Source: a bacterium (lineage in GTDB: Bacteria > UBP7 > UBA6624). From it: a stretch of 20,266 nucleotides of DNA. The translations under genes were made by a program, and so were the position numbers. Every line of letters begins with the position of its first letter. The stretch's first letter is position 1. Where the stretch lies: contig PBAU01000007.1 in NCBI GenBank assembly GCA_002716355.1, positions 1 through 20,266 of the forward strand, given 5' to 3'. Below the pieces are notes generated by a model that had not been told where the DNA came from, did no database searches, and saw only the letters and a list, made by a program, of their open reading frames with translations. Below are positions 1,865-19,966 of this stretch, piece by piece.

Positions 1865-2494
1865 TCAATATCCAGCCCCTTCCTTTTCAACCAGCAGTGC
1901 TGCTGACTGCATTCCTCTTATGTCTCCACCTTGCTCTTGTCCCGCAATCAATGCTGCAACAAGCCTTGCCGCAAAATCAAGATGAGTATTTTCGTGCATT
2001 GCCTCAGCCATTGCTTCAACAACTTTTGCACTGGCTAAAATATTCCCCTGTGCTGCAAATATGATTCCATCTTCTGTTGTTTCCACCGTGCCTCCAGCCC
2101 AATCCATACATTCTTCTCCAGTGTAAGTAAATCCGGTTCCGTCTGTTTTAACAAGACCAACCTGTCTCATTCCTGGATTGTCATCGGTTTTAATTAATGT
2201 ATTCAGGGTTTCTTCAGGAGACATTCCTTTTTCCATCATTTCGAGACCTCTGGGCCCAAAGGTTGTATTTGCAAAAGATTGTGTTGCAATGGCTCCAACT
2301 CCTGCTTTCACCCATGGAACCACAACACCGACCCCAAAGAACTTGCTTTGAACAGCAACTCCAACTTCTTCAGTTCCTGAGTGATAGGCTGCGACTGAAA
2401 ATGTGGAGATGATTTTTTCATCGCATGTTTCTGCATTCAGATTCAAGGGAATGAAAACAAAAAACAAAAGTAGTATTTTTTTAATTTTTTTCAT
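1865..2494 (-). CDS. DUF1028-family (Ntn-hydrolase-like) protein with signal peptide, ending at an in-frame TGA
   Basis: Signal peptide MKKIKKILLLFFVFIPLNLNA. DUF1028-like blocks follow: TFSVAA...GVAVQSKFFGVGVVVPWVKAGVGAIATQSF...MRQVGLV...GNIL...GGDIRGMQSAALLV. A strong SD (AAGGAGA) lies upstream of ATG 2492-2494. Confidence 0.8.
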   Translation of the reverse strand: MKKIKKILLLFFVFIPLNLNAETCDEKIISTFSVAAYHSGTEEVGVAVQSKFFGVGVVVPWVKAGVGAIATQSFANTTFGPRGLEMMEKGMSPEETLNTLIKTDDNPGMRQVGLVKTDGTGFTYTGEECMDWAGGTVETTEDGIIFAAQGNILASAKVVEAMAEAMHENTHLDFAARLVAALIAGQEQGGDIRGMQSAALLVEKEGAGY

Positions 2495-2505
2495 TTTTTT
2501 TCTCC

Positions 2506-3612
2506 TTAGGGCACTAATTTTATAATTATTCCCGAATGTGTAATTAGGTATATCTCTCCTTCTTTATCTTCAGCAAAAGATGAGACCCTGTCTTCGAATG
2601 GTTTTTCATCTGGCCATACTAATTCTAATTTTTGCTGGTTTGATTGTTTATGCATGGTATCGATTGCGGCTACCCATTTTTTAACATAATCTGCAAATAT
2701 GTATTTTCCCTGTAGTTTTTCTATTGCTTTTCCCCTGTAAACATAACCTCCAGTTATTGAAGCCCCTACCGAGCGATCATATACATGAAAAGGGATATCC
2801 AAACCTTTCTTTAAACAATTTTTTGAAGGTTCATAACATGCTTCTCCTTCCATTATTTTCCAACCAAAATTAATACCTGCTTTATCAAAGGGTGATTTAT
2901 GAATTTCTTCCCATTTATTTTGACCCACATCAGCAATCCATAAATCTTTTTCAGTTTTATCAAAAGAGAACCTCCAGGGGTTTCTTAAACCCCAATGCAG
3001 GATTTCTTTTTCAGATTGATCCGTTTTGTAAAAAGGGTTTTCTTTGGGGATTTCATATTTGGCATTTTTGTTTGGAGCAGGTTTGATTCTGAGTATTTTT
3101 CCAAGATAGCTTGATTTATTTTGAGCATAATTTCTTGGATCTCCACCTGCTCCTCCATCACCCATGCCTATATACAGATAGTTGTCCGGCCCAAAAGTTA
3201 TGTATCCTCCATTATGGTTTGCCCAAGGTTGTTCTATTTTTAGCAAAATTAATTCTTCTGAGGTTTTTGGTTTGTTTGTTTTCTCATCTATTGGAAAAGC
3301 AGATATTATTGTTGCTCCGTTTGGTTTTGATGTGTAGTTCACAAAAATCCAATTTTCAGATTCTGTATTTTTTGGGCCAATTGCAATTGAAAGCAGGCCT
3401 TTTTCCCCACCACTGGAAACCCTGTCTCTTATATCAAGCCACACCTCTCCAGGCCTTTTATTTTTTACACCTCGAACAGTGCCTCCCTGCTCAACAACAA
3501 GCATCATTTCATCCTGCCATGTTAAATGCACTGGATATTTAAAGTTTTCAGCTATTAGCTCTATATTGACTTTTGAAAGAAATAAAGATAAGCAAAATAT
3601 TAAAATATTCAT
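2506..3612 (-). CDS. PQQ-dependent (soluble) sugar dehydrogenase, glucose/sorbosone dehydrogenase family
   Basis: Beta-propeller family motifs: HNGGYITFGPDNYLYIGMGDGGAGGDP, LGKILRI, WGLRNPWRFSFD, GWKIMEG, ITGGYVYRG. Short N-terminal signal. ATG at 3610-3612. Confidence 0.85.
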   Translation of the reverse strand: MNILIFCLSLFLSKVNIELIAENFKYPVHLTWQDEMMLVVEQGGTVRGVKNKRPGEVWLDIRDRVSSGGEKGLLSIAIGPKNTESENWIFVNYTSKPNGATIISAFPIDEKTNKPKTSEELILLKIEQPWANHNGGYITFGPDNYLYIGMGDGGAGGDPRNYAQNKSSYLGKILRIKPAPNKNAKYEIPKENPFYKTDQSEKEILHWGLRNPWRFSFDKTEKDLWIADVGQNKWEEIHKSPFDKAGINFGWKIMEGEACYEPSKNCLKKGLDIPFHVYDRSVGASITGGYVYRGKAIEKLQGKYIFADYVKKWVAAIDTMHKQSNQQKLELVWPDEKPFEDRVSSFAEDKEGEIYLITHSGIIIKLVP

Positions 3613-3635
3613 ACTGATAGTGTAAACTTTTTTGA

Positions 3636-3992
3636 ATGAATAATACTTTTTTTACAATAATTTTGGCTTTTGCATGGCTGAATGTTTTGACTTTTGAAAA
3701 AAGGGCTAAGAGATGCGTTATTGAAAGCAAATGGGGCAAATGGAAAGGTATACCTGTTTACAAGATTGGATGGTTTGCATATCCGATTATTTTTCTTTTG
3801 TGGGCGTCTTCAGATTATTATTTTCAAGATTTAAAAGAATTTTTTAGATGGGGGATTTGTGTTGGTCTTTTTGTTTCAAGTAGTAGACAAGCTTGGGGTT
3901 TAAGGTGGTTGGATGATCCATGTACTGCTTGTTTTTCAGGCCATTTTTGTAATTTACTTATAATTCTTTTACTTGCCTTGAAGGTGTTTTGA
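3636..3992 (+). CDS. Small (118 aa) four-helix membrane protein with a membrane-embedded CxxC; possibly VKOR/DsbB-like
   Basis: ATG at 3636 and about four hydrophobic segments. The loop C-x3-S-x-WG-x-W-x-GIP-x-Y-x-x-G and the late CTAC at the start of the last helix resemble VKOR-family patterns, from memory. Its stop TGA (3990-3992) abuts or overlaps the ispH start region. Confidence 0.55.
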   Translation: MNNTFFTIILAFAWLNVLTFEKRAKRCVIESKWGKWKGIPVYKIGWFAYPIIFLLWASSDYYFQDLKEFFRWGICVGLFVSSSRQAWGLRWLDDPCTACFSGHFCNLLIILLLALKVF

Positions 3993-3994
3993 TC

Positions 3995-4933
3995 ATGAAT
4001 AATTTTGAAATAAAAATAGCTCAGCCAAGAGGTTTTTGTGCAGGTGTCGACAGAGCAATTGAAATTGTTGAGCAGGCATTAAAGATATTCGGGTCACCTA
4101 TTTATGTTAGACATGAGATAGTTCACAATAAAAGAGTGGTTAACAATTTAAAAGAAAAGGGAACAATATTTATAGAGGATATTAATGATGTCCCAGATGA
4201 TTCAATTTTAATATTTAGCGCTCATGGCACAGGGAAAGACTTGCTGCAAAAAGCAAGAAGCAGAAAGTTAAAAGTTATTGATGCTGCTTGTCCTTTAGTC
4301 ACAAAGGTTCATATGGAGGCAATAAAGTATTCACAAAAAGGGTATTCAATTGTTTTGATTGGACATGAGGGCCATATAGAGGTAGAAGGAACAATGGGAC
4401 AGCTTCCCAAAGGTGAGATCACACTAGTCGAAACAGTTCAAGATGTAGAAAAATTAAGCTTTGAAAATGATGAAAATGTTGCTGTTATCACTCAGACAAC
4501 ATTAAGTGTTGATGACACCTTTTACATTATGGAAGCTTTAAAAAATAAATATAAAAATTTAATTAAACCAAAAGCGGATGATATTTGCTATGCTACACAA
4601 AATAGGCAGGATGCAGTTAAAGATCTTGCGAGAGAATGTGATTTAATTCTTGTTTTAGGCGCTAGGAATTCCAGCAACAGCAATAGGTTGAGAGAGGTGG
4701 GAGAAAAATGCGGTGTTGCTTCTTTTTTGATTGATGATGCATCGCAATTTCTTCCTGAATGGATAAAGGATGTTGAATCTGTAGGCGTAACAGCTGGAGC
4801 ATCTGCACCTCAGGTTTTAGTTGAAGAGCTGATAGAAACTTTAATCAAACTTGGAGGTGATTTTCCAAAAGCGATTAAAGGCAAGGTGGAGAAGATCTCT
4901 TTTCCATTGCCTATTGAAATTAGAAATGTTTAG
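3995..4933 (+). CDS. ispH: 4-hydroxy-3-methylbut-2-enyl diphosphate reductase (IspH/LytB)
   Basis: MNNFEIKIAQPRGFCAGVDRAI aligns with the canonical IspH N-terminus. Three cluster cysteines are in context: GFCAGV, ACPLVTKVH, ICYATQNRQ. I prefer ATG 3995 (SD AAGGTG at 3981-3986) to the TTG 3989 used by the ORF track. Confidence 0.95.
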   Translation: MNNFEIKIAQPRGFCAGVDRAIEIVEQALKIFGSPIYVRHEIVHNKRVVNNLKEKGTIFIEDINDVPDDSILIFSAHGTGKDLLQKARSRKLKVIDAACPLVTKVHMEAIKYSQKGYSIVLIGHEGHIEVEGTMGQLPKGEITLVETVQDVEKLSFENDENVAVITQTTLSVDDTFYIMEALKNKYKNLIKPKADDICYATQNRQDAVKDLARECDLILVLGARNSSNSNRLREVGEKCGVASFLIDDASQFLPEWIKDVESVGVTAGASAPQVLVEELIETLIKLGGDFPKAIKGKVEKISFPLPIEIRNV

Positions 4934-5003
4934 TTTATTTTTTTGCATATCGCTTCTGTCGCAATAGACCTTCCGGAATTATGACCACACAAAAAAAGAA
5001 TTT

Positions 5004-5390
5004 TTAAAGACATTTGACTATTTCAGTTTTTTTTGGAGTTGAGTACACTATCGCTTTTTGTTTGAAAAGTGTTCCTAATGCAACAATAATGTTTTTTTCT
5101 ACATTTTCAACTGTAAAACTTTCTTCAAAATGCTTTGAGTTTCCGCATTTTGTTTTGTAGTATTCAAGACCAAGTTCCATTAGCTTTGATTCAAGAATAT
5201 TATTTGCTTTTTCATTTTTTTCTTTGCTTGTTTTTTTGTTTAAAGGATTCCATGCAGTTATTATTCCGAATGTTTTTTTGCTCAGGGTTTTGCATGCTCC
5301 TCGTTCATTCACCTTGAATGACACGAGTACATTTTTGTCATTTTTTATCCAGTATTTACTTTCGTAATACTCTTTGGGTGTATTGTTCAT
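5004..5390 (-). CDS. Hypothetical protein, DUF3293-like
   Basis: 128 aa. The FGIITAWNP core and following helical region resemble DUF3293, from memory only. Its ATG overlaps the upstream symporter stop (ATGA at 5387-5390), suggesting translational coupling. Confidence 0.7.
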   Translation of the reverse strand: MNNTPKEYYESKYWIKNDKNVLVSFKVNERGACKTLSKKTFGIITAWNPLNKKTSKEKNEKANNILESKLMELGLEYYKTKCGNSKHFEESFTVENVEKNIIVALGTLFKQKAIVYSTPKKTEIVKCL

Positions 5391-14399: not shown

Positions 14400-15617
14400 C
14401 TAAAAACCTGCCTGTTGATGTCCTACAGGGCAAACAGAGAAACTCAGACCTGCCGCTGCAACTGATCCAGCTGAAGACCCAAAGCCTAATTGAGCAGTTT
14501 CTTCACATATTAATATCTGAAGACCTTGCTGGATTATTTCTCTTCTTTCCTGAGCTTGCCTATATGCTTTTGTTTCTCCTGTTGGAATTTGGTTTTCGTA
14601 AACTTTCATATTGTTTTCAAGAGTGACAAGAACGTCGATTAATTTGTCGGTTTCAGGATTAATGTATGCTCTTCCACTTAACTCTAGCGTTCCAATGAAA
14701 TTCCTATCAATTCTCCATTCATTTTTTTCACTTACTTCATTACCATCAAATCTTGCAAAACCAAACATGTCGATAACGATTGAAGGTTCCAGTCTGTATG
14801 CTTTGAGGTTTGGAAGACTTAGCATTGTTCCTCCAGAAACAATACCTTGAACAAATCTCACATCCCTAATTGGAAGTCTATATTCAATATCTATTTTTTG
14901 AAGAGTTCTTAAGCCAGGAATTGTGAGGTAGACAGGTCTAACCCAAGTTTCACCTAATTGGACTGATCTGTCAGGGAATCTCAATATATGAAAGTATTCC
15001 ATTATTTGTTGAAGTGATACATTGGCTCTTTCTCTCTCATTTTGAACAAGTTCTAATGGAATTCCTTGACTAGTTAAAACCTCACCATTTTTATTTCTTA
15101 TTAAAGTATGTTCCTCTTGAAGTAAATCAATTACTGAATCTTCAATTGCAGTGCCTTCAGAACTTCCAGAACCTCCTCCTCCACCAACTCCCATGCCCAT
15201 TCTTAAATCTGCACTTCGACCTTCGTTTCCGCCGTCGTCACCATCGTCGCCACCACCATCGTCGCCACCGCCATCGTCGCCACCGCCATCGCCACCAGCA
15301 CCACCTGAAATTTCAAACTCTTGTCTCTGGTAGGAATAATCATCAAATCTTATTTTTGACCATGTTAAATTGAATTCTTCACTCTCATGACTCTCGGAAA
15401 GAACTGCTCTTGTGAAACCTTCAAGGCTTTCAAATTCACCTGGAGCCCATATTTGACCACTGGATCCAGCTTGGATGATATACCTGTGTGGAGTTGCATA
15501 CATCGGTATAGGAGGATCATAGGAAAGTTTAATAAAGTCAGATTTTGTTGACATTGAAGAAGCAACTAAAAGTACAGCAGGAACCAAGAAAAAAAGTCTA
15601 ATGCCTTTTATTTTCAT
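14400..15617 (-). CDS. Secreted protein of unknown function with an internal Gly/Asp-rich repeat linker
   Basis: ATG at 15615-15617 and signal peptide MKIKGIRLFFLVPAVLLVASS. An N-domain of about 100 aa is followed by GGAGGDGGGDDGGGDDGGGDDGDDGGNEG...GVGGGGGSGSSEG, then a C-domain of about 250 aa. No family recognised. Confidence 0.8.
   Translation of the reverse strand: MKIKGIRLFFLVPAVLLVASSMSTKSDFIKLSYDPPIPMYATPHRYIIQAGSSGQIWAPGEFESLEGFTRAVLSESHESEEFNLTWSKIRFDDYSYQRQEFEISGGAGGDGGGDDGGGDDGGGDDGDDGGNEGRSADLRMGMGVGGGGGSGSSEGTAIEDSVIDLLQEEHTLIRNKNGEVLTSQGIPLELVQNERERANVSLQQIMEYFHILRFPDRSVQLGETWVRPVYLTIPGLRTLQKIDIEYRLPIRDVRFVQGIVSGGTMLSLPNLKAYRLEPSIVIDMFGFARFDGNEVSEKNEWRIDRNFIGTLELSGRAYINPETDKLIDVLVTLENNMKVYENQIPTGETKAYRQAQERREIIQQGLQILICEETAQLGFGSSAGSVAAAGLSFSVCPVGHQQAGF
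15229..15305 (-). repeat. Imperfect 15-bp tandem repeat (ccatcgtcgccaccg on the + strand) encoding (GGGDD)n
   Basis: Units at 15241-15255, 15256-15270 and 15271-15285 differ by at most 1 nt. Degenerate copies flank them. The repeat is in frame inside CDS 14400-15617 and is locally GC-rich in an AT-rich window. Confidence 0.85.
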
Positions 15618-15668: not shown

Positions 15669-16775
15669 CTAATTTCCCTTGAGTCCTTTTATTAAACCTC
15701 TATGGGAAATTTTTAATTCGTAATTTGAATTGTATAAAGAGGGATATTCATATTTATTATTGTGAAATTTTAACAACCAACTATCATTGTCTCTCATTCC
15801 CCAAAATGTCATTCCAAATTGTTGATTTTTTGGAATAGACATGTATATTTCGGCTATTTCTTTATATTTCTCCTCTTGAATCAATGCCTTTTCGTAATTA
15901 AGTCTTTTAAATGATTTTTCTTTGTTAACAGTTATGTCAATTTCTGAAAAATGAATCAATAATCCTGATTTAATAATTTTTTCTAGATTTTGCTTAATTG
16001 TTTCTTTTTTTGGATTTAGATGATCTATATGCATTTGGAAACCTATTCCATCAATTGGGATATTTTTTTCTTGAAAATTTTTAATCATTTTTTGCACTTT
16101 TTTAATTTTTGAAGGATAACTTTCAAGGTTGTAGTCGTTGTAGAAGAGTTTTACGTCCGGATCTGCTTCTCTTGCCCATTTAAAACACTTGCTCACATAA
16201 TCTTCACCAATTTTTTTTCTAAAGATACTATTTTCTGCTCCTGTAGTGAAAGCTTCATTGACTACATCCCAACCTTCAACAATTGAAACTTCTTCTCCAT
16301 CAATCCTTACTTTTTCTTTTGCAAAGTGGGAAACTGTATTTTGTATATAGTCTTTTATAAGACTCTCAAAGTCTTCATCGGTTCCTTTGTAATTTTTTAG
16401 CCATTTCGGTATTGAGCTATGCCAAATTAAGGCATGACCGAAGACGCGAAAATTGTTTTCTTTTGCAAATTTGACAATCTCATCACCATCACTAAAGTCA
16501 TAAATGCCTGGAGCTTTAAAGATGTTTGCCATTTTCATTTGATTTTCTGCTGTCATGCTATTGAAGTCTCTTTTGAGCGTTGAAACAAACAGGGGGTTTG
16601 ATTTTAGCTTCTCAGAAGAAACAACATTGCCTATAGGAAAAGAGGCGATGTTTTTTATTGACTCTTGAGTTTTGTAGGTTGTGCCACTTTCGTATGATGG
16701 ATTTAGCAAAAAGCTTACAAGGAAGAAAAGAAAAGAAAAGTTTTTAATTATGAAAATTCTCCAGTATTTCTTCAC
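15669..16775 (-). CDS. Secreted glycoside hydrolase family 10 endo-1,4-beta-xylanase
   Basis: GH10 blocks GHALIWHSSIPKWL, WDVVNEAF (acid/base Glu), LFYNDYN, IDGIGFQMHI, FSEIDIT (nucleophile Glu) and TFWGMRDNDSW. N-terminal hydrophobic signal. GTG start at 16773-16775. Confidence 0.9.
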   Translation of the reverse strand: MKKYWRIFIIKNFSFLFFLVSFLLNPSYESGTTYKTQESIKNIASFPIGNVVSSEKLKSNPLFVSTLKRDFNSMTAENQMKMANIFKAPGIYDFSDGDEIVKFAKENNFRVFGHALIWHSSIPKWLKNYKGTDEDFESLIKDYIQNTVSHFAKEKVRIDGEEVSIVEGWDVVNEAFTTGAENSIFRKKIGEDYVSKCFKWAREADPDVKLFYNDYNLESYPSKIKKVQKMIKNFQEKNIPIDGIGFQMHIDHLNPKKETIKQNLEKIIKSGLLIHFSEIDITVNKEKSFKRLNYEKALIQEEKYKEIAEIYMSIPKNQQFGMTFWGMRDNDSWLLKFHNNKYEYPSLYNSNYELKISHRGLIKGLKGN

Positions 16776-16776
16776 A

Positions 16777-16851
16777 TGGTGGAGCTGGAGGGATTCGAAC
16801 CCTCGACCCCTTGTATGCCATACAAGTGCGCTACCACTGCGCCACAGCCCC
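16777..16851 (-). tRNA. tRNA-Ala (anticodon GGC), CCA encoded
   Basis: Manual cloverleaf: GGGGCTG TG GCGC AGTGGTA GCGC A CTTGT ATGGCAT ACAAG GGGTC GAGGG TTCGAAT CCCTC CAGCTCC A CCA. The G3-U70 alanine identity pair is present. Confidence 0.9.
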
Positions 16852-16853
16852 TT

Positions 16854-17198
16854 TTAAGATTCGTAAACTATCAAGCATCCTTCCACTAATCCATCTATAT
16901 CCCAATAATCCCTTGCTGCTGGAGTCATGAGATGAATTATCGTGTCACCCAAATCTAACAAAGTCCATTCTGATTCAGCTTTAGACCCTTCAGGGATAAT
17001 TCCATTGAAGCCATTTTTTTTCAACCATATTTTTGCATTTTCCCTCAATGTTCTTAAATGCGTTTTGTTTTGTGCTGTGGCAATTATGAAATTTTTTGTC
17101 CATGTTATTTTTTTTTCAACATTGATTAGTTTCACCTCTTCAGCAAGTTCTTCAACTAGCATAAGGCTTATTTCTTTTGGTTTGGCGTTCTTCGTCAT
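16854..17198 (-). CDS. rsfS: Ribosome silencing factor RsfS (Iojap family)
   Basis: C-terminal signature EGSKAESEWTLLDLGDTIIHLMTPAARDYWDIDGL matches the RsfS EG...W.L.D.G...VH.F....R..Y.LE.LW pattern. 114 aa. Conserved position after nadD. Confidence 0.9.
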   Translation of the reverse strand: MTKNAKPKEISLMLVEELAEEVKLINVEKKITWTKNFIIATAQNKTHLRTLRENAKIWLKKNGFNGIIPEGSKAESEWTLLDLGDTIIHLMTPAARDYWDIDGLVEGCLIVYES

Positions 17199-17201
17199 TG
17201 T

Positions 17202-18023
17202 TTATTGGTTTATATTTTTTGCAACCCATTGATTCAATTCGCTCATTTCAGGAGACCAGAAGGGACCCATGAATTTACCTGGGAGTATTTCTGTTGTTGG
17301 AGCTTCACCAAGTGTTCTTATCCCGAGTATTAAGGCTTCTTCAATTTTTAAGTTAGTTTCAATGTTTTTTAAGAAATTTTGTATTATGAATATTTTTTTT
17401 AATGTTGCTGTTTTGTGAAATTTTTTTAAAATAGCGTGGGCTAATTTCTGTTGTCTTTGTATTCGTCCTATATCCCCCAATGCATCACTTCTGAACCTTG
17501 CATAAAGCAAAGATTGACGACCATTTAAGTTATGTATGCCAGGTGAAAAGTCAATCAATAGGTTTTGAGATTTGTCTTCATATTTCATTTCTTTTTCTAT
17601 ATGTATTTTTATTCCACCCAAACCATCTATTAGCTGCTCCAGGTTTTTAAAATTTATAACTAGGTATTTGTCTACTGGAATGTTTGCTAACGAGGTTAAA
17701 GCCCCTCTTAAACCTGTTATGTTGCCATTTTCATGCCAACTATGGTTGATCCTGTTTGTTCCATTTTCAGTTTCAACTAAAGTGTCTCTAGGTATTGAAA
17801 GTATTTTTGGGGAGCCCCCTTCTTTAGGTAACGCTGTTAAAAGAATAGTATCAGGGTTTATATCTTCTTTTGATTGGTCTAGCCCGACAATTAAAATTGT
17901 TTCAGATCTTTTTTGTTTGTTTTTTTTGAAGCTTTCTGGAAATTCAAAATACGAAAGAGTCAAAAAGGTCAGTATGGCAAAAAGCATACTTGAAAAAGTT
18001 AAGTTTAAATACCTTCTAATCAC
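17202..18023 (-). CDS. LytR-CpsA-Psr (LCP) family protein with N-terminal membrane anchor
   Basis: LCP blocks ILIVGLD, DTILL, SIPRDT, INFKNLEQLIDGLGGI, LNGRQSLLYARFR and GDIGRIQRQQ. GTG start at 18021-18023 overlaps the nadD end by 8 nt. Confidence 0.85.
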   Translation of the reverse strand: MIRRYLNLTFSSMLFAILTFLTLSYFEFPESFKKNKQKRSETILIVGLDQSKEDINPDTILLTALPKEGGSPKILSIPRDTLVETENGTNRINHSWHENGNITGLRGALTSLANIPVDKYLVINFKNLEQLIDGLGGIKIHIEKEMKYEDKSQNLLIDFSPGIHNLNGRQSLLYARFRSDALGDIGRIQRQQKLAHAILKKFHKTATLKKIFIIQNFLKNIETNLKIEEALILGIRTLGEAPTTEILPGKFMGPFWSPEMSELNQWVAKNINQ

Positions 18024-18579
18024 TGTAAAGACCGTTTGTTTTTATTTGTTGTTTTATTTTTTTTGGCACCATTTCATCAATTGATTCCTTAAGTTTAATT
18101 TTATTTCTTATTTTCGATGATGATATTTTAACAATTTTGTTTCTAAGGAGAGTGCCTTCTTTTTCTTTTTTTGAATTTGTTCTTTCTGCTATCACCATGG
18201 TGCATATTTGAATTAATTCTTTGTAATCTTTCCATTTTTCAATTTTTCTTAAATTATCATCACCAAGCAGTAATGATATTTTTTGATTTTTGTGTATTTT
18301 TTTTATAAATTTAACCTGGTCAATAGCATAGCAAGTTTTTTTTGTTTTGCCTTCAAAATCAGACACTTTTACATTTTTGATCCCCAATGTTCCTAATTTA
18401 CATAATTGCAATCTTTTACTGTAAGGTGCATGAATTTTCTTGCCTACCGGTGATTTGAATGTAGGAATTACATATATAGGGTTATATTTTTTTTCCTCCG
18501 CCATTTTGATTAAGTGTAGATGACCGTTGTGAAACGGATCAAAAGCTCCTCCAAAAATCAATGGTTTCAATTTGGCCAT
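18016..18579 (-). CDS. nadD: Nicotinate-nucleotide adenylyltransferase NadD
   Basis: GGAFDPFHNGH (T/HxGH nucleotidyltransferase motif) and C-terminal SSSKIR (ISSTxIR-like). 187 aa. The ATG overlaps the obg-like gene end by 13 nt. Confidence 0.9.
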   Translation of the reverse strand: MAKLKPLIFGGAFDPFHNGHLHLIKMAEEKKYNPIYVIPTFKSPVGKKIHAPYSKRLQLCKLGTLGIKNVKVSDFEGKTKKTCYAIDQVKFIKKIHKNQKISLLLGDDNLRKIEKWKDYKELIQICTMVIAERTNSKKEKEGTLLRNKIVKISSSKIRNKIKLKESIDEMVPKKIKQQIKTNGLYSD

Positions 18580-19391
18580 TTTTCGATCTCGGTAATGTTT
18601 TCTGAAAGGATTGGTATTTTTGACAATCCATAAGTGAATATCTTTGATTTTGTTGGAATGTTTTTTTGAATCTCTTTAAATTCTTGATTTTTAAAAGATC
18701 CGATAAAAACAATATTCTTTGCGTTTCTTATGTGGTGCAACCATTTTTTTTCTTGATCGAAGTTTGGTATCAGTAATATTTTTTCATTTTCTTTTAGCTT
18801 GTTTACCTTAACGCCTATTATTGGATAGTTTGGCACCATATTTTCATACCTTCTTCCTGTAAGTTTTTCATGAACATCTAAACAGAGGGTATCATTTGAA
18901 ATGATTGCAGTATCGCAGGGTATAAAGTAGTTCATTTTCAAACTTTTTTCATCACCCATTTCTCCTTGTGTGTGTTTTCTTGGAGATCTGTTAACAGAGC
19001 TCGCGAAAGATCTATTACCTTTTCCTCCGCGGCCTCCTTTTAAGGTGAATTCTTGACCATGGCCGTTTAATTTTTTTATTGTCTTGTCATCCATATCTTT
19101 AAGAACTGTTCCAATTGGAACTTTCAACACTAGTGTTTTTCCATTCTTTCCACTTTTTTTGTTTTTTCCACCGGGTTGACCATCTTCAGCCTTGAAGGGT
19201 TTTATTTTTTTGAATTTGTAGAGATCGAATATTGAGGATTCAGCAGTGATCTTCAAATCTCCACCTTTGCCACCATTACCTCCATCAGGACCCATGCTTG
19301 CTCTGAATTTTTGCCTCAGGAAGGAAGTCTTACCATCGCCCCCAGCCCCAGCGATAAAATGAGCTTTAGCCGAATCTACAAATGAACTAAT
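18567..19391 (-). CDS. obg: Obg-like protein: intact Obg N-terminal glycine-rich fold, degenerate P-loop-less remnant of the GTPase domain, non-canonical start
   Basis: Located in the rplU-rpmA-obg-nadD-rsfS position. Obg-fold blocks present: FVDSAKAHFIAGAGGDGKTSFLRQKF, GPDGGNGGKGGDL, VLKVPIGT, KGGRGGKGNRSFASSVNRSPR. The track ORF starts at an internal ATG (19295). The frame stays open up to TAG 19407-19409 and contains only ATT (19389-19391, 19404-19406) or CTG (19401-19403) as possible starts. Confidence 0.8.
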   Translation of the reverse strand: MSSFVDSAKAHFIAGAGGDGKTSFLRQKFRASMGPDGGNGGKGGDLKITAESSIFDLYKFKKIKPFKAEDGQPGGKNKKSGKNGKTLVLKVPIGTVLKDMDDKTIKKLNGHGQEFTLKGGRGGKGNRSFASSVNRSPRKHTQGEMGDEKSLKMNYFIPCDTAIISNDTLCLDVHEKLTGRRYENMVPNYPIIGVKVNKLKENEKILLIPNFDQEKKWLHHIRNAKNIVFIGSFKNQEFKEIQKNIPTKSKIFTYGLSKIPILSENITEIEKWPN

Positions 19392-19395
19392 GAAT

Positions 19396-19650
19396 TTACT
19401 CAGAATCTATTTGTGCCACTTTTTTATTGCCTCTTTTTTTGATGTATTTGACTACTCCATCATCTAAAGCAAATAAAGTGAAATCTTTTCCAATACCAAC
19501 ATTTTTTCCAGGATGAATGCTTTTTCCTCTTTGTCTAACTAGAACATTTCCAGCTGCAACTTTTTGACCATCTGAGCATTTGATCCCAAGACGTTTTCCT
19601 GCAGTTGATCTTAAATTTTTAGTACTACCTTGACCTGTTTTGTGTGCCAT
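19396..19650 (-). CDS. rpmA: 50S ribosomal protein L27
   Basis: [24 protein letters not shown]...GNVLVRQRG...HPG.NVG.GKD.TLFAL matches the canonical L27. 84 aa. Confidence 0.95.
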
Positions 19651-19651
19651 A

Positions 19652-19966
19652 TCAACCCTCGATTTTTAATACCTTTAATTGAGTGTATTCTTGTCTATGC
19701 CCAATTATTCGTTTGTAATTTTTTTTAGGTTTGTATTTTTGAACCCTTACTTTTTTGTCTTTTACATGAGAAAGGATTTGACATGTTACTTTTGCTTTTT
19801 CCACAAGTGGTTTCCCAATTTTGACCTTGTCTTTATTGATTGTCATTAAGACTTCTTTGAAAATAACTTTTTTCCCTTTCTCTTCGTCTATCTTGTCTAC
19901 AAATACAACATCTCCAGAAGAAATTAACATTTGTGTTCCTGATGCTTTAATAATTGCTCTTTTCAT
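19652..19966 (-). CDS. rplU: 50S ribosomal protein L21
   Basis: 104 aa. The L21 pattern ([19 protein letters not shown]... basic C-terminal half ...GHRQ.YT.LKV..I) is present, immediately upstream of rpmA. SD GAAGG lies 8 nt before the ATG. Confidence 0.95.

Follow-up and report, generated by a model that had tools for sequence, protein, structure and literature searches.

Locus and gene organization

The 20,266-nucleotide stretch analysed here (the window) is the forward strand of contig PBAU01000007.1 from assembly GCA_002716355.1, a bacterium of the GTDB lineage UBP7, UBA6624. Its minus strand carries a cluster in the order rplU, rpmA, obg, nadD, a LytR_cpsA_psr (LCP) family gene and rsfS (Table 1). 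The subject of this study is the third gene, an obg that encodes the N-terminal Obg fold followed by a short C-terminal half that has no P-loop. Few bacterial GTPases are as conserved as Obg, which has proved essential in every case tested and is a candidate antibiotic target.

The product is deposited in GenBank as MBG98273.1, 'hypothetical protein [bacterium]', with 279 amino acids. Translation of the minus strand from 18567 to 19412 gives a TAG stop and then ATT CTG AGT AAA... in a single uninterrupted frame. This bears out an earlier reading of the locus made from its letters alone (the sequence-only reading), which described an intact open reading frame overlapping nadD by 13 nt. The strings quoted there (FIPCDTAIISNDTLC, NMVPNYPIIGV, LIPNFDQEK, WLHHIRNAKNIVFIGS and GKNGKT) are all found in the translated gene, and synteny in relatives supports its identification of the gene as the Obg of this operon position. 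It also placed obg after rplU-rpmA and before nadD-rsfS; the first part holds, but nadD and rsfS are separated by the LCP gene. That gene interrupts nadD-rsfS in all members of the lineage, the high-GC sister contig L029 among them, which is an unusual arrangement for this widespread pair. A pattern scan of the minus strand found no terminator-like sites from rplU to rsfS.

Table 1. Features of the obg locus in the window and, in the last four lines, the corresponding frame openings on related contigs
Feature	Position	Strand	Basis or remark
rplU (ribosomal protein L21)	19652-19966	-	first gene of the operon, upstream of rpmA
rpmA (ribosomal protein L27)	19396-19650	-	stop codon overlaps the obg start region
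P-loop-less obg, coding sequence	18567-19406	-	279 codons from ATT 19406, or 278 from CTG 19403; stop 18567-18569
Start region ATT-CTG	19401-19406	-	overlaps the final rpmA codons (...TCT GAG TAA)
Obg fold, GTP1_OBG (PF01018), residues 10-159	18930-19379	-	Pfam, profile positions 1-152 of 155
GAGGDGKT, chance Walker A-like string within the first glycine-rich segment of the Obg fold	19326-19349	-	regex scan
Putative degenerate, shortened G-domain remnant, residues 160-279	18570-18929	-	AlphaFold2, Foldseek, weak colinear sequence signal, dN/dS
P-loop site, SNDTLCL in place of GxPNAGKST	18879-18899	-	alignments
G3 (switch II) remnant, L-I-P-N in place of D-x-P-G	18762-18773	-	alignments
nadD (nicotinate-nucleotide adenylyltransferase)	18016-18579	-	ATG at 18579; 13-nt overlap with the end of obg
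LytR_cpsA_psr (LCP) family gene	17202-18023	-	between nadD and rsfS
rsfS (ribosome silencing factor)	16854-17198	-	last gene of the cluster
obg frame opening over the rpmA stop, L001	5890-5898
obg frame opening over the rpmA stop, L033	about 300-312
obg frame opening over the rpmA stop, L029	12983-12995
obg frame opening over the rpmA stop, L032	about 790-800

Retention of the Obg fold and loss of the G motifs

In Pfam the whole protein matches GTP1_OBG and no other family, with an E-value of 6.5e-42, in agreement with the earlier description of an intact N-terminal domain, and phmmer against the ObgE structures 5m04 and 4csu gives E-values of about 5e-32. Alignment to the NCBIfam Obg equivalogs is confined to profile positions 1-164, and both scores lie below the equivalog cut-offs (TIGR02729, 148.7 against 280.25; NF008956, 153.2 against 300). 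The G-domain family MMR_HSR1 (PF01926) gave no match to the whole protein even at E ≤ 10. The 120-residue C-terminal half, submitted alone, matched no Pfam family, and the same was true of the C-terminal halves of four relatives.

The alignments show a deletion of about eight residues across the P-loop and helix α1. The 'EGAxxGKGLG' loop that follows G3 is deleted in the low-GC clade, to which the window belongs, and partly retained in a sister clade ('GGGLGASFLHH'). The switch I threonine is gone, the domain has lost its final third (α4-β6-α5, which bears G4 and G5), and there is no C-terminal domain. A six-frame regex scan of 18560-19420 found no NKxD, no DxxG in the obg frame and no GxxxxGK[ST] in the C-terminal half. 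A frameshift or alternative frame hiding a P-loop was rejected on the same scan, as no Walker A motif occurs in the C-terminal region in any of the six frames. The claims of the sequence-only reading that the G domain is shortened and lacks G1, G3 and G4, and that no other frame encodes a P-loop, therefore stand: profile methods recovered none of these motifs, and of the Obg_N and MMR_HSR1 models only GTP1_OBG matched.

One detail of that reading has to be corrected. GKNGKT, in the N-terminal domain, had been given as the only GK[ST]-like string, but GAGGDGKT in the same domain matches GxxxxGK[ST] in full. We rejected GAGGDGKT as a relocated P-loop. It sits in a polyproline-II glycine segment of the Obg fold where canonical Obgs carry AGDGGNGC, and its lysine is an arginine in L011, L001 and L005. 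Because of this position and the unconserved lysine it is a chance match, and one that could mislead motif scans.

A family conserved across a marine lineage

The same architecture and synteny recur in dozens of independent marine assemblies. Relatives were found in Tara, JGI, ENA, NCBI and Logan assemblies, on contigs of up to 164 kb, and the order rplU-rpmA-obg-nadD-LCP-rsfS is the same in all of them. A search of 5.8 billion protein clusters returned six close clusters with 62-98% identity, all with PF01018 only and all called from an internal ATG, and five GTDB species representatives carry the P-loop-less obg. A single representative, P0005, has entries in 52 indexed blocks of the collection. 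When 1.84 billion representatives clustered at 50% identity were searched exhaustively with a HMMER profile, only P0005, P0281, P0282 and P0379 rose above the general Obg background, and the family-profile search showed a clean gap in score between the family and Obgs in general, from 223 to 143 bits.

The G+C content of the low-GC lineage is 34.5%. More divergent members were found on the sister contig L029 (218 kb, 51% GC), which has the same synteny and an Obg with PF01018 only ('...LFLPCNTLLLSRG...TGR...ILLLPK...FLHH...'), and on L032 and L033 (GC 66-71%), where a P-loop-less Obg lies between rpmA and nadD. UvrB, encoded at a neighbouring position, is 78-96% identical within the clade and 57% identical in one sister, L029; identities to unrelated phyla are at most 52%. 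Judged by these UvrB identities, this deep-branching lineage is isolated. Our literature searches turned up no description of an Obg that lacks the P-loop or is a pseudo-GTPase, and the proteins described here form a small variant family of Obg.

Purifying selection on both halves

The ratio of nonsynonymous to synonymous substitution rates (dN/dS) was estimated by the Nei-Gojobori method for seven distinct low-GC orthologues (21 pairs). The close pairs (for example L015/L001, L011/L012 and WIN/L011) are the most reliable because dS is near saturation in the distant ones. The ratio is 0.06-0.22 for the N-terminal domain (residues 36-160), 0.02-0.23 for residues 161-225 of the C-terminal half and 0.12-0.61 for the tail (residues 226-279), so that residues 161-225 are under purifying selection as strong as that on the N-terminal domain. 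Family-wide, at about 33% identity, 23 residues of the C-terminal half are invariant (numbered with the CTG as 1): P162, C163, T165, H178, E179, L181, T182, R184, P191, P194, G197, V198, E207, I209, L210, L211, P213, L222, H223, A228, G235, W276 and P277. The short C-terminal tail ends in the conserved W-P. Loss of the G1-G5 motifs under purifying selection, one of the marks of a pseudoGTPase, was thus found in this family.

These data bear on the alternative that the gene is a decaying pseudogene, or that its P-loop was deleted through an error of assembly or sequencing. The truncated G domain with its lost motifs and the lack of a canonical start codon upstream of M37 are what such a reading would predict. 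Against it, the frame is intact in ten of ten orthologous loci spanning 33-98% protein identity, all segments, the 35 codons ahead of the first ATG among them, have dN/dS values well under 1, and at the corresponding position sister clades start with TTG. The dN/dS values and the 23 invariant residues therefore rule out a pseudogene. Nor can the missing stretch be an assembly error, since ENA, JGI, NCBI, Tara and Logan assemblies all contain the same sequence. Taken as a whole, we regard this alternative as extremely improbable. The sequence-only reading had proposed dN/dS of the C-terminal half, orthologues in related genomes and a possible assembly deletion as checks, and all three favoured it: the gene is maintained, the same G-motif loss runs throughout the lineage and there is no deletion artefact.

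The C-terminal half as a decayed G domain

The C-terminal half aligns in colinear order with the G domain of canonical Obgs. YFIPCDTAIIS falls on strand β1 ('LIADVGLVG' in canonical Obgs), PNYPIIGV pairs with 'PNLGVV' (β2), ILLIPN with 'vADIPG' (β3 and G3) and WLHH...AKxIVFxG with 'FLRHIERT+vLlhlID' (α2-β4). The sister clade reads 'GGGLGASFLHH' where canonical Obgs have 'GKGLGxxFLRH', and its switch II loop is on this alignment an intermediate state between canonical Obg and the low-GC clade.

Structure predictions were made with AlphaFold2 (AF2). With canonical Obgs in the alignment, the model has a predicted local distance difference test score (pLDDT) of 84.7 and a predicted template-modelling score (pTM) of 0.80. 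From ten family members alone the overall pLDDT is 78, with 75-91 in the C-terminal half. Both models share the order β1-α1-β2-β3-α2-β4-α3-β5 and then one further short strand. Foldseek aligns both with Obg structures over about 270-310 columns at E-values of about 1e-17 to 1e-20, and the top template-modelling (TM) scores are to ribosome-bound forms of ObgE (7bl2, 0.74/0.66) and of its mitochondrial homologue (7o9k, 0.77/0.67). The next matches of the family-only model are small GTPases (Rab, Rho and Arf), over about 110 columns with E-values from 6e-4. Prediction and comparison with Obg, as the sequence-only reading had suggested, thus give a shortened Ras-like fold and an alignment of the whole model to Obg. 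The Ras-like α/β G-domain fold, a second mark of a pseudoGTPase, is present by prediction with AF2 and Foldseek.

The competing explanation for this half is that recombination replaced the G domain with an unrelated domain that has its own function. Such a swap would account for the lack of any significant Pfam or PDB sequence match, for an hhalign probability of just 4% to the G domain, and for new invariants without a counterpart in canonical Obg (C163, H178, E179, T182, R184, E207 and W276-P277). It fits less well with an alignment to the G domain that is colinear and begins exactly at the domain boundary, with recognisable core strands and an 'FLRH'-like helix, or with a sister clade that retains part of the switch II loop. 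Further, AF2 without canonical Obgs still yields the G-domain order and Foldseek then matches small GTPases, while the weak matches of the family profile to PDB sequences are enriched in ARF GTPases at homologous positions (five of the nine, aligned across β2 to β4). We consider a swapped domain unlikely. On the predicted models, the C-terminal half is a G domain decayed to a shortened Ras-like core.

A second possibility would keep the protein as a switch that binds a nucleotide or another small ligand in a non-canonical pocket built from the new invariant residues. The polar residues of the C-terminal half that are invariant family-wide (C163, T165, H178, E179, T182, R184, E207 and H223) could be read in this way, as could the selection on residues 161-225, which matches that on the N-terminal domain. 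Yet the P-loop, the Mg2+-coordinating Ser/Thr, DxxG and the specificity motif NKxD are all missing, and C163 and D164 align to the N-terminal start of β1. Because of that position these two residues would lie near the interface with the Obg fold, away from the former nucleotide pocket. A ligand pocket seems to us improbable, slightly more so than a swapped domain. A Cys/His metal site replacing the nucleotide pocket was set aside on the same ground, C163 being placed by alignment at the start of β1 and away from the pocket.

A non-canonical start overlapping the rpmA stop

No ATG, GTG or TTG precedes M36/M37 of the obg frame, the earliest lying at 19295, and for this reason an open-reading-frame listing gives only 242 amino acids. 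In all low-GC orthologues the frame opens TAG A[T/C]T CTG AGT AA... over the rpmA stop. The CTG is invariant among them and also occurs in L029 and L033, while the ATT, which is the start used by GenBank, is replaced by ACT in one subclade (L008 and L014). At the frame opening of the low-GC members and of L033, the conserved CTG (with ATT in most) takes the place of an ATG, GTG or TTG. The 66%-GC member reads CCC CTG AGT AG in the same layout as the low-GC loci, and in the 51%- and 71%-GC members a TTG occupies the equivalent start position or lies beside it.

Codons 2-35, which precede the first ATG, have a dN/dS of 0.02-0.37 in 20 of the 21 pairs and 0.56 in the remaining one. The internal ATG (M37) was rejected as the real start: the 35 codons upstream of it vary synonymously while the protein they encode is conserved, and a TTG lies upstream in sister clades. 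A fusion of L27 with Obg by ribosomal frameshifting was also rejected as unlikely, since a TAG lies directly upstream in the obg frame and the overlap has no slippery sequence. Translation probably initiates at the near-cognate CTG or ATT, coupled to termination of L27 (termination-reinitiation). Because the start is non-canonical, automatic callers begin at the internal Met and lose about 36 conserved residues.

Search for a second, canonical obg

Every Obg GTPase tested so far has proved essential, and these proteins must bind GTP in order to function (PMC4028186, PMC6982127). These observations favour an alternative in which the essential GTPase comes from another obg, of canonical type, that arose by duplication or was gained by horizontal transfer. 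Relieved of that task, the operon copy could have lost nucleotide binding and become specialised or regulatory, perhaps competing for the 50S subunit, or holding a place on it, independently of GTP. A precedent for coexistence is offered by the Obg paralogues GTPBP5 and GTPBP10, both of which were Foldseek matches of our models and which occur together on human mitochondrial assembly intermediates.

The position of the gene and the profile scores speak against a second copy. In every member of the lineage it is the degenerate copy, not a canonical one, that occupies the ancestral rplU-rpmA position, and the family-profile searches, with their fall from 223 to 143 bits, gave no canonical Obg resembling a close paralogue.

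No other GTPase genes were found within about 50 kb around the locus, and the contig scan made to map the family returned only pseudo-Obg loci and unrelated canonical Obgs. Two candidates were rejected. The best canonical match, P0007, comes from an unrelated metagenome-assembled genome with a different gene context. P0480, a low-GC marine candidate, does not belong to this lineage because its contigs have 27% GC, against 34.5% for the lineage, and place it beside a rhodopsin gene.

We weigh a second canonical obg as a serious contender whose chance falls somewhat short of even. The same tentative standing applies to the stronger claim that canonical Obg is wholly absent from this lineage, which is marine, free-living and deep-branching, and that its sole Obg is a nucleotide-free pseudo-GTPase. 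Unless the genome has a normal copy at another site, the Obg described here may function independently of GTP.

Comparison with known systems

Canonical Obg (CgtA, ObgE; TIGR02729; PF01018 with PF01926; 1LNZ, 1UDX, 5M04, 4CSU and 7BL2) has the same N-terminal Obg fold, at 33-46% identity, the same operon position after rplU-rpmA and, by comparison with our predicted structure, the same two-domain layout. The pseudo-Obg differs in having no P-loop, switch I threonine, DxxG or NKxD, in a G domain that is about 60 residues shorter, in the absence of a C-terminal domain and in its non-canonical start. Damaged motifs are also found in other Obgs among the 50%-identity representatives: P0331 lacks G1, G3 and G4, P0284, P0304 and P0347 have GK→GR, and P0338 has GK→GT, while many further Obgs in this library have a non-DxPG switch II. 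In contrast to the present family, to which they are unrelated, those five proteins are full-length (315-420 amino acids) and keep the P-loop spacing. These sequences show that Obg G motifs have been lost or altered more than once.

The class I pseudoGTPases of eukaryotes include CENP-M, the pG1 and pG2 domains of p190RhoGAP and the N-terminal domain of AAGAB. They have a G-domain fold and bind no nucleotide (PMC12490416). The likeness to the pseudo-Obg lies in a Ras-like fold retained under selection as a structural or interaction module after loss of the G motifs. Those proteins are, however, eukaryotic and unrelated to ribosome biogenesis, whereas the pseudo-G domain described here would have arisen in an otherwise universally conserved bacterial GTPase and is still fused to its effector domain.

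In Foldseek the model reached its best TM-scores with mitochondrial GTPBP5 (MTG2) and GTPBP10 (7o9k, 0.77; 7odt, 0.62). Both are Obg-fold proteins that act on late large-subunit intermediates, beside the RsfS homologue MALSU1. They differ in keeping functional G domains and in coexisting as paralogues, whereas here the degenerate form alone was seen. RsfS itself, encoded in the same cluster, is a nucleotide-independent 50S binder that blocks subunit joining, the type of action proposed below for the pseudo-Obg; its fold is unrelated, and it binds uL14 rather than the peptidyl-transferase centre.

Proposed function

Feng et al. (PMC4028186) report that the N-terminal domain of E. coli ObgE reaches into the peptidyl-transferase centre, at H89-H93 and the A-loop. 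ObgE that lacks only its C-terminal domain retains anti-association activity, and the N-terminal domain was named as the main activity centre; the K27/K31 and R136/R139 mutants, in loops 1 and 3, almost lost 50S binding (PMC4028186). By HMMER alignment to ObgE, the equivalents of K27, R136 and R139 are retained in the protein from the window. From its sequence the protein is predicted to bind no nucleotide. On the basis of the ObgE data and these three residues, we propose that it is a GTP-independent 50S-binding factor.

The interpretation that we favour is that the gene is the lineage's own obg, orthologous by operon position, whose GTPase domain has decayed to a nucleotide-free pseudo-GTPase and which still docks on the 50S subunit. 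We put the probability of this interpretation at roughly 60%. With the P-loop and part of helix α1 deleted, a small α/β core is left, kept intact by selection. The N-terminal Obg fold, which is as conserved as in ordinary Obgs, most likely still enters the region of the peptidyl-transferase centre (H89-H93), and the protein could serve as a late 50S assembly checkpoint or as an anti-association factor beside the co-encoded RsfS. GTP, GDP and (p)ppGpp would have ceased to control binding to and release from the 50S subunit; control would instead lie with the level of the protein, coupled to L21 and L27 synthesis, or with the maturation of the 50S subunit itself.

Several points weigh against this interpretation. 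The signal for a G domain is weak when the sequence comparisons are taken alone: the hhalign match, with the low probability given above, has P = 0.009 over 96 colinear columns, and the nine matches of the family profile to PDB sequences have E-values of 0.4-1.6. In the first AF2 model, made with canonical Obgs in the alignment, residues 170-210 have a pLDDT of only 53-73. Three of the six basic residues tested are replaced (the equivalents of ObgE K31, R76 and R82), and the loops that held them, including loop 2, remain lysine-rich. No Shine-Dalgarno sequence was found at a useful distance from the proposed start. The view of the genome spans about 50 kb around the locus, which leaves room for a canonical copy elsewhere, and if one is present the pseudo-Obg need not perform the essential role of Obg. 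What the analysis establishes is the domain architecture, the loss of the motifs, the conservation, the synteny and a predicted fold; ribosome binding, GTP independence and translational coupling are properties that we infer.

Other features of the window

A GH10 (xylanase-family) gene at 15669-16775 on the minus strand adjoins tRNA-Ala (16777-16851) and lies between rsfS/tRNA-Ala and the next conserved gene. It is present at this position in the window and in L008-L010. L001-L007 lack it there, so the gene is a variable insertion beside the tRNA gene. Two minus-strand open reading frames, a tetratricopeptide repeat (TPR) protein of 124 amino acids (1466-1840) and a DUF1028 protein of 209 amino acids (1865-2494), are separate in the window and form one 342-amino-acid gene (L037, 11350-12378) in a nearly identical 118-kb Tara contig. 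The split therefore reflects a frameshift or stop in the window copy, either a sequencing error or a real disruption.

Lineage-conserved genes without a Pfam match include one at 14400-15617 on the minus strand (about 405-412 amino acids; in L001, 8570-10023), followed in related loci by an open reading frame of 71 amino acids, and a 118-amino-acid open reading frame upstream of ispH (3636-3992, plus strand). Outside the window, between uvrB and rplU, L001 carries two tandem paralogues of about 477 amino acids (2311-5185) with faint Cu2_monoox_C matches only; L003 has one copy and the sister L029 has none. An Rfam scan returned tRNAs only.

Implications

Obg is one of the 120 GTDB marker genes, and pipelines that assess completeness or phylogeny will count it as missing from these genomes. 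Gene callers shorten the pseudo-Obg by about 36 residues. How the GTP/ppGpp cycle of Obg is linked to its essential function is still debated. The family offers a natural separation-of-function variant, with which one can ask directly if the Obg fold by itself suffices for 50S assembly or anti-association. If these genomes have no canonical copy, the assumption of a universal requirement for Obg GTPase activity would fall. If the pseudo-Obg is the sole Obg of the lineage, the indispensable part of the protein would be the interaction of the Obg fold with the 50S subunit, and gating by GTP and (p)ppGpp would be something that can be lost in nature.

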